Positions 45,742-50,400 of a DNA stretch of 50,400 nt are shown piece after piece. How positions within the stretch are numbered: position 1 is the first letter of the stretch; each line of letters opens with the position of its first letter. The DNA comes from Promethearchaeota archaeon. GTDB taxonomy: Archaea > Asgardarchaeota > Lokiarchaeia > Sigyniarchaeales > SOKP01. Both the position numbers and the translations under genes were made by a program. The stretch is taken from positions 1-50,400 of the forward strand of contig SHMW01000024.1 of assembly GCA_008080735.1 (NCBI GenBank), read 5' to 3'. The notes below the pieces were generated by a model that was not told the origin of the DNA, did not search any database, and saw only the letters and a list, made by a program, of their open reading frames with translations.

Positions 45742-46206
45742 ATGACGATTATTGGAATTCCTTCCTTTGGAAGCGGTGGCCTAAATTCTAACCTAAATCC
45801 TCGATTTGGAAGATGTGCGGCATTTACCTTTGTCACAGTTGAAAATGGTGAAATCGAAAAGGTAAAAACAGTACCTAATAATGCTGCAAACGCTATGGGA
45901 GGCGCAGGTATTCAAGCAGCTCAAATTATAGGCAATAATGGAGCATCAGCAGTAATTGTAGGTAATCTCGGACCCAATGCCGCCCAAGCATTAGGTTCTC
46001 TCAACCTGGATATCTATCAAGCACCACCTCAACAAGTAACTGTTAAACAAGCGATCGAAAAGTTCATTAAAGGAGAACTTCAAAATATCTCGGGTGCGAA
46101 TGTCGGCGCTCATTATGGAATGGGCGGTGGTGGTCGAGGTATGGGTGGAGGAGGCGGTCGTGGAATGGGCGGAGGAATGGGAAGCGGTCGTAGAAGAAAT
46201 ATGTAA
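45742..46206 (+). CDS. NifB/NifX-family cluster-binding protein with Gly/Arg/Met-rich tail
   Basis: RFGRC..F, GGAGIQAAQ, GNLGPNA; GGGGRGMG repeats. Confidence 0.92.
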   Translation: MTIIGIPSFGSGGLNSNLNPRFGRCAAFTFVTVENGEIEKVKTVPNNAANAMGGAGIQAAQIIGNNGASAVIVGNLGPNAAQALGSLNLDIYQAPPQQVTVKQAIEKFIKGELQNISGANVGAHYGMGGGGRGMGGGGGRGMGGGMGSGRRRNM

Positions 46207-46455: not shown

Positions 46456-47427
46456 ATGGATGATAATATGTCAATAAAGAATAAGCCTTCGGTTCAGAAT
46501 GGGCCCAAACGGATTTGTGTGACGGGAGGAAAAGGTGGAACCGGGAAAACCTTGATCGCTGTGAATTTGGCAACAATGTTCAAAAATGAAGGAAAAAAGG
46601 TACTATTGGTGGACGGAGATGTTGAGAACCCTAATACATACCTTCTACTGAATGGAAAATTAGAGAATAAAGAGCATGTTCCTTTTTTCAAGCCAGTTAT
46701 TAATGAGGAAAAGTGTTCAAAATGTGGATTATGTGCGAAAAATTGTGCTACGCATGCTTTACTCCACGTAGAAGGGCAATATCCGATACCATTTTTGAAT
46801 TTATGTTCGGGTTGTAAGCTCTGTTATAAAATCTGTCCCGAGAACGCAATTGAAGAGGATTATAAGGAGTTAGGATGGACCTATGAAACAAATGTGAACG
46901 GAATGGACCTCTTAGTGGGGGAATTAAAACCGTCTGAAGCTCGCTCTGTGGGCATCGTAGAAGCTCTAATGAACAAAATTGACCAAAGATTACAAGAATA
47001 CCCAGAACGATATGACGTAATTGTAATGGATACAGCTCCAGGTGCCCATTGTGATGTGGAATTATTATTAGAAAAGGCAGATAAAATAATTCCTGTAACA
47101 GAGCCTACGAGGTTTGGAGAATTGGATTTGATTAGGATTATCGATTTAATAGATCTTTTAAAAAAGGATTTCAGAGTGATTGTAAATAGATCTTCTTTAT
47201 TAGGATTTAGAGAAGAATTTTTGGATAAGCTTGATGAGCAAGATATACAGATTTTAGGTGATATTCCCTTGGATGATGAGATAGTGAAGTCTTACTGTCA
47301 AGGTATACCTCTTATGGAAAAGAATGGCAAATTTGATACAGAAAGTGAAGGGTATAAGGCTTTTAAGGAAATATATAAAAATCTACAAAATTGGTTAAAT
47401 GATTCACAAGTGGAGGAAAGTATATAA
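46456..47427 (+). CDS. MinD-superfamily P-loop ATPase with inserted ferredoxin (COG1149), first paralog
   Basis: GGKGGTGKT, DVENPN, CSKCGLC...C, CSGCKLC...CP, DTAPGAHC, VTEPT. Confidence 0.92.
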   Translation: MDDNMSIKNKPSVQNGPKRICVTGGKGGTGKTLIAVNLATMFKNEGKKVLLVDGDVENPNTYLLLNGKLENKEHVPFFKPVINEEKCSKCGLCAKNCATHALLHVEGQYPIPFLNLCSGCKLCYKICPENAIEEDYKELGWTYETNVNGMDLLVGELKPSEARSVGIVEALMNKIDQRLQEYPERYDVIVMDTAPGAHCDVELLLEKADKIIPVTEPTRFGELDLIRIIDLIDLLKKDFRVIVNRSSLLGFREEFLDKLDEQDIQILGDIPLDDEIVKSYCQGIPLMEKNGKFDTESEGYKAFKEIYKNLQNWLNDSQVEESI

Positions 47428-47428
47428 G

Positions 47429-48352
47429 ATGGAAGCGAAAGCTGTAGGAATAATCTCGGGAAAGGGAGGAGTTGGAAAAACCTCCTTGACCGCCTCACTC
47501 GCGAGTTTAGCAGAGAAGGATCCTGAAATAAGTCCGATGATAATGGATTGTGATGTAGATGCCCCAAATTTGGCTTTGATATTACCATCTAAAAATGATG
47601 ATAAGATAAAAACAAAAGATACATATACCACGTTGAAAGCACGTTTTAATGAAAAAAATTGCGTCCATTGTAAGCAATGCATAGACGACCACTTTTGTGA
47701 ATTTCACGCATTAAACTGGGATGAGGAGAATGAGGTTCCGGTTATTGATTATTTGGCATGCGAAGGATGTGGCGCGTGTAAAGTTCTATGTCCAGAACAT
47801 GCGTTTGAAATCAATCCCGTTAAAAGCGGAGAAATTATCTCTTACGAAACCAAATTGGGACCTCAATTAGTATACGGAAAGACAGAATTAGGCAGCACTA
47901 CCTCTGGGAAATTGGTCTCAGAAAGTAAAGAATTTGCGAAAAATCTTAATATTAATGAAGAGGTTGATTTGACCATTATCGACGGGCCACCAGGTATTGG
48001 ATGTCCTGTCATTGCCACCGTTTCAGGATTAGATTATGTAATAACTATCTGTGAACCTACTCCCTCGGGACTTCATGATGTAATTCGAGCGATAGAAGTG
48101 GTAAAGGAATTTAATATACCATTTGGAATAGTGATAAACAAAGCAGACTTGAAGAGTCCATTCCAAGATGAGTTCAAGGAATTTATAGAAAATACTGGAT
48201 ATGATATTCTTGGAAGAATTCCATTTGATCTACAGATTGCTCACGCAATGGCACACGCTGAACCTGTTGTGGATTATGCTCCAACATCAGAAGCCAGTAA
48301 GGCAATTGGAGAGATTTATAAGAATCTAAAGAAAATATTAATAGAGAAATGA
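47429..48352 (+). CDS. MinD-superfamily P-loop ATPase with inserted ferredoxin (COG1149), second paralog
   Basis: SGKGGVGKT, DCDVDAPNL, CEGCGAC...CP, SGKLV, DGPPGIGCPV; start moved from 47399 to the ATG at 47429. Confidence 0.92.
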   Translation: MEAKAVGIISGKGGVGKTSLTASLASLAEKDPEISPMIMDCDVDAPNLALILPSKNDDKIKTKDTYTTLKARFNEKNCVHCKQCIDDHFCEFHALNWDEENEVPVIDYLACEGCGACKVLCPEHAFEINPVKSGEIISYETKLGPQLVYGKTELGSTTSGKLVSESKEFAKNLNINEEVDLTIIDGPPGIGCPVIATVSGLDYVITICEPTPSGLHDVIRAIEVVKEFNIPFGIVINKADLKSPFQDEFKEFIENTGYDILGRIPFDLQIAHAMAHAEPVVDYAPTSEASKAIGEIYKNLKKILIEK

Positions 48353-48534: not shown

Positions 48535-49005
48535 ATGGAAATTTATAATTTTTTGCCGCAGACAAATTGTAAGAAATGCGGTAAAGATACATGCATGGCA
48601 TTCGCTCTTGAATTATTAAAAGGAAATGTGAAGATTGCAGATTGTACTCCATTAGTCGAAGAGGAAAAATATTCGGAAAAGCTTGAAAATTTGAAGGAAT
48701 TAATCGGGGACGAAGAAGGCAAGCAAAAAGAGCTTCGCATTAATGTAGATGAAGACGAGTGTGATGGATGCGGTATCTGTGTGACCGTGTGTCCTGTGAA
48801 TGCCCGTTATTGTTATTCCACCCTCAGCGGAAAAGCTCCAGACTATCCTCCCGATGAACATCAATTGTTTGTTGTAAAAGGCGGGAAATGCGAGCTTTTA
48901 AATCTTGAACATTGTAGAAGGGTTGCAGCAGAAGGGAGAGAACGGGAATGTCGAGTGTGTGAAACTTATTGTCCTCGAGAAGCCGTTAAAATAGAGTATG
49001 TTTAA
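48535..49005 (+). CDS. fwdG: Formylmethanofuran dehydrogenase subunit G-like ferredoxin with N-terminal FeS domain
   Basis: LPQTNCKKCG..TCMAFA...C; CDGCGICVTVCPVNA...GK; adjacent to fwdB. Confidence 0.75.
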   Translation: MEIYNFLPQTNCKKCGKDTCMAFALELLKGNVKIADCTPLVEEEKYSEKLENLKELIGDEEGKQKELRINVDEDECDGCGICVTVCPVNARYCYSTLSGKAPDYPPDEHQLFVVKGGKCELLNLEHCRRVAAEGRERECRVCETYCPREAVKIEYV

Positions 49006-49046
49006 TTATTAACTCATCCTTACCGATTTAAATTAATAATAAAAAT

Positions 49047-50375
49047 GTGAATAAAATGAAAAAAATAACTTGCACTGGATGTAGCCTTTTATGTGATGAT
49101 ATAATTATTGAAGAGGGAAAGGAGATTAAAGAACTCATCGGAGCATGTTTGAAAGGTCAAGATAGACTTGATCAAGTTCACTCTGAAAATAGGATCTTAA
49201 AACCCCAAATAAGAAAAGGGGAGGAATTAAAGAAGACAAATTGGAATGAAGCATTAGAAAGAACGCTTGAACTCATAAATAAAGCACAAAAACCTCTTTT
49301 ATATGGATTTTCAACTATTTCTTGTGAAGCTCAAGTAAAAGCAATCAAATTAGCAAAGAAAATAGATGGGTTTATTGACTCAAACTCCACGATTTGCCAA
49401 GGGAGAACTTTTAATGCCGCAAAAGAGACGGGTTTGACTATAAGCACATTGACAGAAGTAATTAATAAAAGCGATATCATTGTTCTCTGGGGATTTAATG
49501 CTGTAGAATCAATTCCGCGTCTACTTAATAAAGTTCTTTTTTCCAGAGGGAAATTCCGTATGACAGGGAGGGAAATTAAAACGTTAATTGTTATAGATCC
49601 GATTAAAACCGCATCGTTTAATGTTATGGGCCCAAGAGATATCGCTATACGTATCAATCCAGATGAAGATATAAAGTTAATCAGAAAATTAACCGAGATT
49701 TGCTGTAAGGATTCACAAATACCGGATGATGGTATAGCTGGCATTGATAAAGACGATCTAGAGAGATTGCTAACTAATTTGACAAATTCAGAAAATATTG
49801 CCATTTTTGTTGGACAAGGTCTTTTAAAACCTCAAAATGGGTCAGATCCCCTAAAAGAACTAATCCAATTAGTTGATGTAATAAATTCTCGCAATAAAAA
49901 GGGTCGAGCATCTCTCCTCGCCGCGGGTGGTCATTATAATATGATTGGATTCGATCATATGGCTTTAGCATCCGAGGGAAAAAACCACAGTCTCCAATTT
50001 AAGAACAATGAACTCATAGATAATGAAGAAAACATCATTTCTAAAATAAAAAAGGAAGATTTTGATTTGTCTATCGTGGTCGGGACAGATCCAATTGCCC
50101 ATTTACCCTTTGAATTAAGTAAAAAACTAGCTGCGAAACCCATTATTTTAATTGATTACTCCAAATCTGCTACTTATTTCGTGTCGGATGTGGTACTTCC
50201 TACGGCAATTACTGGGATAGAAAGTGGAGGGACAGCATTTCGACTGGATAATGTACCTATTCCTCTTATTAAATTTCTTGATCCGCCCGAAGAAGTTTAT
50301 TCAGATGAGGAGCTCTTAGATAAAATACTTATTACCCTAGATAATGGGAAGGAGGAAACCGGAAAATGGAATTAA
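49047..50375 (+). CDS. fwdB: Formylmethanofuran dehydrogenase subunit B homolog with altered active site
   Basis: CTGCSLLCDDI...ACLKG, PLLYG, CEAQ, GHYN..GF, DP.AH.P, GIE..GTAFRLD.VP; ATG at 49056 is an alternative start. Confidence 0.9.
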   Translation: MNKMKKITCTGCSLLCDDIIIEEGKEIKELIGACLKGQDRLDQVHSENRILKPQIRKGEELKKTNWNEALERTLELINKAQKPLLYGFSTISCEAQVKAIKLAKKIDGFIDSNSTICQGRTFNAAKETGLTISTLTEVINKSDIIVLWGFNAVESIPRLLNKVLFSRGKFRMTGREIKTLIVIDPIKTASFNVMGPRDIAIRINPDEDIKLIRKLTEICCKDSQIPDDGIAGIDKDDLERLLTNLTNSENIAIFVGQGLLKPQNGSDPLKELIQLVDVINSRNKKGRASLLAAGGHYNMIGFDHMALASEGKNHSLQFKNNELIDNEENIISKIKKEDFDLSIVVGTDPIAHLPFELSKKLAAKPIILIDYSKSATYFVSDVVLPTAITGIESGGTAFRLDNVPIPLIKFLDPPEEVYSDEELLDKILITLDNGKEETGKWN

Positions 50376-50400
50376 AATTAAATCCCGTCAGAATGATTGA
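50366..50400 (+). CDS. 5' end of next gene, probably fwdD (partial)
   Basis: ATG overlapping the fwdB end, SD-like GGAGG upstream, MELKLNPVRMI resembles FwdD N-termini; only 11 codons visible. Confidence 0.45.
   Translation, partial: MELKLNPVRMI

Follow-up and report, generated by a model that had tools for sequence, protein, structure and literature searches.

Metabolic reconstructions of Asgard archaea from genomes take fwdB matches as evidence of the archaeal Wood-Ljungdahl pathway. A gene close to the end of the present contig raises the question of what such a match stands for: its product, here FwdB', scores above the cut-off of the NCBI FwdB model and goes by the name FwdB in public records, although it is without the residues for the reaction with CO2. 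The window analyzed is the entire contig of 50,400 nt, ending at base 50400, from an assembly of 4.1 Mb that is 93% complete. The features concerned are the following.

45742-46206, plus strand: NifX-like (Nitro_FeMo-Co) gene, by Pfam
46456-47427 and 47399-48352, plus strand: two CbiA/ParA P-loop ATPases with ferredoxin inserts, by Pfam
48535-49005, plus strand: 156-aa Fe-S subunit upstream of fwdB' (Pfam PF04060 "FeS," 7.7e-13, and Fer4)
49047-50375, plus strand: FwdB', 442 aa from the GTG at 49047; the database protein has 439 aa from the ATG at 49056
49395-49400, plus strand: Cys117-Gln118 codons of FwdB' (canonical Cys-His)
49926-49928, plus strand: Gly294 codon of FwdB' (canonical Arg288 position)
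50366-50400, plus strand: start of FwdD', first 11 codons MELKLNPVRMI, cut off at the contig end

The operon of this genome is interrupted by the contig end. The fwdD' ORF starts at 50366 with a 10-nt overlap with the fwdB' stop, and its first codons, in which the earlier note had correctly read LNPVR, resemble the FwdD' start of relatives (e.g., MELRLNSVRMI) where M. wolfeii FwdD has NTGRT. The fwdA' gene of this genome lies beyond the contig end, and the FwdA' data given below are those of orthologous operons; a tblastn search for FwdD' and FwdA' elsewhere in this 93%-complete assembly found none, just the canonical FwdA (27% identity). In 10 of 20 distinct related loci, by synteny, the NifX-like and ATPase genes precede the operon on its own strand, directly upstream in 5 and a few kilobases off in the remaining ones, and the module recurs upstream of the FwdB' operon in several genera. 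These genes possibly have a role in cofactor maturation, with a loose link to the operon. The two ATPase genes overlap each other by 29 nt, and the NifX-like protein (45742-46206) carries a Gly/Arg-rich C-terminal tail (GMGGGGRGMGGGGGRGMGGGMGSGRRRNM) that is unusual for its family.

FwdB' was compared with M. wolfeii FwdB (5T5I_B) in a HMMER alignment (E 9.7e-71); identity of the B subunit to canonical FwdB is 31%. The M. wolfeii motifs SVCHGPS and PMRGHYN were aligned with TICQGRT and AAGGHYN, which turns Cys118/His119 into Cys117/Gln118 and Arg288 into Gly294. The replacement of this His/Arg pair, the central claim of the earlier note, was confirmed by the alignment and by the contrast with two canonical paralogs, and the coordinates it gave (49395-49400 for Cys117-Gln118 and 49926 for Gly294) were right. 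His119 and Arg288 are each present in 17 of 17 canonical FwdB representatives and belong to the conserved metal-surrounding set common to Fmd and formate dehydrogenases (PMC11656701). The metal-ligand Cys117 and the N-terminal 4Fe-4S Cys set (C9, C12, C16, and C34) are all kept, as had also been claimed, together with His296, the retained His290 of M. wolfeii, and the nucleotide-binding motifs common with canonical FwdB (WG.N, IDP, G256, N280, D340, G390, G395, R399, and D401). With 333.7 bits, FwdB' only marginally exceeded the TIGR03129 (FwdB/FmdB) cut-off of 327.8.

Further along the alignment, WGCNPMHAHPRH of M. wolfeii FwdB stands against WGFNAVESIPRL of FwdB', with HAHPRH turned into ESIPRL. 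A clade-specific insertion of three residues, K-G-R (residues 285 to 287, 49899-49907), lies 7 to 9 residues ahead of the GGH motif; within the FwdB' clade, Arg287 is invariant (100%) and Lys285 nearly so (97%), and the pair is a candidate for a remodelled active-site loop. A Cys-Cys pair in EICCKD (residues 219 and 220, 49701-49706) is found in 96% and 91% of the clade, respectively, at positions where canonical FwdB has Leu and Arg.

Substitutions alone might come from a decaying duplicate under relaxed selection, and the earlier note had accordingly asked whether they were private to this genome. They proved to be clade-wide. In the 120 nearest protein clusters (59 to 77% identity, all Asgard-labelled), the ligand Cys was present in 120, Gln118 in 117, Gly294 in 118, ESIPRL in 120, and the Fe-S Cys set in 119. 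Position 120 was basic (Lys/Arg) in 109 of the 120, and two members had His at 118. At 50% clustering the clade collapses into one full-length representative, with the next relatives at no more than 37% identity. Among 400 species genomes of the phylum, with a presence threshold of at least 48% identity, FwdB' was detected in 113 genomes (13 genera) out of the 135 that represent one Asgard family, and in none of the other 32 families sampled. Pairwise dN/dS was 0.08 to 0.15 for FwdB', 0.02 to 0.10 for the ferredoxin, and 0.10 to 0.32 for FwdA'. Decay is refuted for practical purposes by the dN/dS of about 0.1, the same substitutions in 120 clusters and 13 genera, and the intact reading frames. 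Selenocysteine at the ligand position was considered and rejected: the in-frame stop codons flagged in some orthologues proved to be the normal ends of these genes, and thus there is no selenocysteine in the FwdB' orthologues. In two loci (L038 of G147 and L039 of G149) of the genus that is the family's most divergent, with FwdB' at 48 to 50% identity, the opposite strand carries, 3 to 5 kb from the operon, a second gene of the FwdB family that shares 32% identity with FwdB'.

The check for a canonical paralog that had been proposed gave two, each in a fwdDB pair, so FwdB' is the third FwdB copy of the genome. The canonical FwdB paralogs, at 607 and 601 bits, have the motifs CHGP, PMRGHYN, and NPVHAHPRH; each gene adjoins fwdD, and one pair (contig C46) also adjoins fwdC, the sole fwdC of the genome. 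A canonical fwdA (783 bits) and ftr are encoded, too. Having two fwdDB pairs along with fwdA, fwdC, and ftr, the genome does not depend on FwdB' to encode the Fwd step of the archaeal Wood-Ljungdahl pathway. The earlier note had seen a bearing on whether fwd genes indicate CO2 fixation in this lineage; the capacity of the lineage is not in doubt given the canonical set, and what holds of the concern is that "FwdB" annotations over-count. At least one further FwdB-family match was found in 99 of the 113 FwdB'-bearing genomes. Since the operon is limited to one Asgard family and normal Fwd genes stand alongside it, its function is probably something besides CO2 fixation.

Two further observations were made in this genome. 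Two adjoining ORFs resembling HdrA halves (C49:17882-19696, minus strand) lie 3 to 4 kb from the canonical fwdDB-polyferredoxin cluster (C49:22540-25088). An Ftr-like paralog (C4:106873-107787, minus strand; L067:374-1288) scored 203.6 bits, short of the 292.6-bit cut-off, and shares 35% identity with the canonical Ftr (C11); it occurs in about 82 of 135 family genomes at 66 to 82% identity. As a candidate partner of FwdB' it was rejected, being equally frequent with FwdB' (69/113) and without it (13/22), and no link was found.

All 20 distinct loci, drawn from 12 genera and with a closed 3.3-Mb chromosome among them, had the gene order Fe-S ferredoxin-B'-D'-A'; in one of the 20 the ferredoxin ORF was missed by the screen. 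Neither fwdC, fwdF/G, nor ftr was found in the operon in these 20 loci, and no hdrA was adjacent to it. The upstream gene had been taken for fwdG, wrongly: the 156-aa protein has an N-terminal PF04060 "FeS" domain of the RnfB/CdhE-N-terminal type (Cys12, 15, 20, and 37) followed by a 2x[4Fe-4S] ferredoxin with the Cys patterns C76-x2-C-x2-C-x3-CP and C127...C139-x2-C142-x3-C146-P, and its best NCBIfam matches are the CdhE N-terminus and RnfB. Its twelve Cys, fitting three clusters, are invariant in 18 orthologues.

FwdD' of relatives has about 125 aa (Molydop_binding) and keeps the domain IV hallmarks SIWANQ and YKN, with an N-terminus reading N-(T/S/P)-(V/I)-R. FwdA' of relatives is an amidohydrolase of about 555 aa. 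Of 138 sequences, at least 136 retain the HxH motif, the Lys, and the later His ligands, but 137 have Asn at the position of the strand-8 catalytic Asp; the His that follows is replaced by Phe or Tyr, and the invariant motifs DRR and EGD..F..R are new. The four His, the Asp, and the carboxy-Lys are perfectly conserved in all Fmd studied (PMC11656701). NCBIfam scores fall below cut-off for both FwdA' (291.5 < 392.75) and FwdD' (46.6 < 175), and FwdA' is named "amidohydrolase family protein" in public records.

The AF2 model of FwdB' (pLDDT 85.8) superimposed on FwdB chains with TM 0.87 to 0.90 versus 0.66 on FhcB (6S6Y_F). For the predicted ferredoxin-FwdB' complex the ipSAE was 0.86 (best of three controls, 0.00; 58 of 80 solved complexes attained this mark, as did 2 of 110 mismatched pairs), a pass that may in part reflect likeness to the solved FwdG-FwdB interface. 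The runs agreed in at least 97% of contacts with a partner pLDDT of at least 82. In the predicted complex the first cluster motif of the ferredoxin (residues 76 to 85) is placed against FwdB' residues 29 to 38 (with Cys34) and 153 to 169, and the modelling supports binding of the ferredoxin to FwdB'. The ESIPRL segment, previously listed among the departures from the canonical motifs, sits at this predicted interface and not in the active site.

These data bear on whether the complex could still be a CO2-reducing formyl-methanofuran dehydrogenase, an isoenzyme in which Gln118 with Lys/Arg120, or other residues, would replace the His/Arg pair. The score above the FwdB model cut-off, the full B-D-A set, the basic position 120 in 109 of 120 clusters, and the two members with His118 are in keeping with it, and Lys285/Arg287 of the insertion are further candidates for compensating basic residues. 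Position 120 varies, however, fwdC is absent from the operon, canonical copies coexist, the lost His119 and Arg288 are invariant in the 17 canonical FwdB and part of the Fmd/formate dehydrogenase set (PMC11656701), and FwdA' is without an Asp conserved in all studied Fmd, which together leave the isoenzyme improbable.

The earlier note had named as its first option an Fhc-like complex, a formyltransferase/hydrolase that releases or takes up formate, and FwdB', having lost its residues for CO2/formate redox chemistry, does recall FhcB. Fhc has lost both the D subunit and the metallopterin (PMC11656701), whereas the D subunit, the ligand Cys, the Fe-S Cys set, and a dedicated three-cluster ferredoxin are conserved here. 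The full-size fold is kept with a TM of only 0.66 to FhcB, FwdA' is without the hydrolytic Asp, ftr and fwdC are missing from the operon, and the Ftr-like paralog shows no co-occurrence with FwdB'. The formate-exchanging complex is accordingly given a very small share of our confidence.

We favor, with a probability of about 0.5, the reading of FwdB' as the pterin subunit of a ferredoxin-wired Fwd-like complex that would have been retooled from CO2/formate/formyl-methanofuran chemistry toward another substrate. The retention of the Cys and Fe-S ligands, the D subunit, the nucleotide-binding motifs, and a highly conserved ferredoxin argues for a working, electron-fed metal site, and the loss of His/Arg along with the Asp-to-Asn change in FwdA' argues against both the CO2-to-formate-to-formyl-methanofuran reaction and an Fhc-type hydrolase. 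Electrons delivered by ferredoxin would run along the three small-subunit clusters and the [4Fe-4S] cluster of FwdB' to a Cys-ligated Mo/W-bisPGD, and this site, without the His/Arg pair, would act on a substrate besides CO2/formate. FwdA' would still bind two metals, with Asn in place of the general-base Asp, and might be the site where a different partner molecule is bound or condensed, instead of acting as a formyl-methanofuran synthase or hydrolase. The CO2 step of the genome would be left to the canonical Fwd.

The alternative suggestion of the earlier note, a Mo/W enzyme with new chemistry, became the leading reading since the replacement of His/Arg, with the Cys and relay kept, is fixed under purifying selection in the whole clade; the interpretation given in the earlier note is, taken together, partly supported. 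In its more specific form, a two-site Mo/W-pterin and binuclear-metal enzyme might catalyze a reaction new to the DMSO-reductase and Fwd families, a proposal offered tentatively, at somewhat less than even odds. Just as tentatively, this reaction would be driven by ferredoxin and would convert a small molecule that is neither CO2 nor formate, with channelling between B'D' and A', and it would be specific to one large Lokiarchaeia-type family. No description of this paralog was found in the searchable full-text literature.

A catalytically silent relay or scaffold, in which the metals of B'D'A' would be structural or serve electron transfer only, on behalf of another enzyme such as an Hdr-type bifurcating complex, would explain why the acid/base residues are gone from both classical active sites. 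The nearest clades (33 to 37% identity) have the same PF04060 ferredoxin, often stand by HdrA and a polyferredoxin, and in some cases have fully degenerate A-like subunits; the loss of metal ligands in these shows that such modules can persist as scaffolds. In the FwdB' operon, however, the ligand Cys and all His/Lys ligands of FwdA' are kept at no less than 98.5%, FwdA' has gained new invariant polar motifs, and hdrA is not adjacent in any of the 20 distinct loci. We regard the scaffold as unlikely, yet as the main rival of the retooled enzyme.

The operon is a well-defined target of four highly conserved genes that a large Lokiarchaeia-type family carries in most of its genomes. In it, both catalytic centers of a well-understood two-site enzyme have been altered in a coordinated and fixed manner, which makes the operon a natural experiment on the Fwd architecture beyond CO2 fixation. 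Since FwdB' passes the model without the catalytic residues, it should be kept separate from canonical FwdB in presence/absence tables.

Within the FwdB superfamily, many clades are without the Cys, the His, or the Arg, and the nearest clades outside the FwdB' group (33 to 37% identity) are found in other Asgard families. In a FastTree tree of 93 FwdB-family rows, midpoint rooted and with long branches, the FwdB' clade was well supported (96) and stood apart from the Hdr-linked clades; support near the root was weak and sister relations are uncertain.

Compared with FwdABCDFG (M. wolfeii 5T5I/5T5M, "Ca. Ethanoperedens" 8RJA, and M. hungatei 7BKB), the B, D, and A subunits are homologous at 31%, about 25 to 30%, and about 27% identity, respectively. 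FwdB' shares with that complex the N-terminal [4Fe-4S] Cys set, the Cys ligand, His290, and the FwdB fold, and the ferredoxin-type subunit is likewise predicted beside the B cluster. Unlike FwdABCDFG, FwdB' has Gln for His119, Gly for Arg288, ESIPRL for HAHPRH, and the 3-residue insertion before GGH, FwdA' has Asn for the catalytic Asp and Phe/Tyr for the following His, and the operon has a PF04060 Fe-S ferredoxin instead of FwdC, FwdF, and FwdG.

Fhc (M. extorquens 6S6Y) is similarly derived from Fwd, with an FhcB that is without CO2/formate redox chemistry. It differs in its shorter (355 aa), pterin-less FhcB and the missing D subunit, where the FwdB' operon has FwdD', and in its active hydrolase FhcA and the presence in the complex of FhcC and Ftr (FhcD), neither of which is in the FwdB' operon.

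The Hdr-linked FwdB-like paralogs of other Asgard and archaeal lineages (L056-L063 and L066) have in common with the FwdB' operon the PF04060 ferredoxin directly upstream, the loss of Arg288, and D-like and A-like partners nearby. Their identity to FwdB' is 33 to 37%, and they often have HdrA and a polyferredoxin as neighbors. Their A-like subunits are degenerate to varying degrees, some without metal ligands, and, unlike FwdB', most of these paralogs keep Cys-His and SHPRH.
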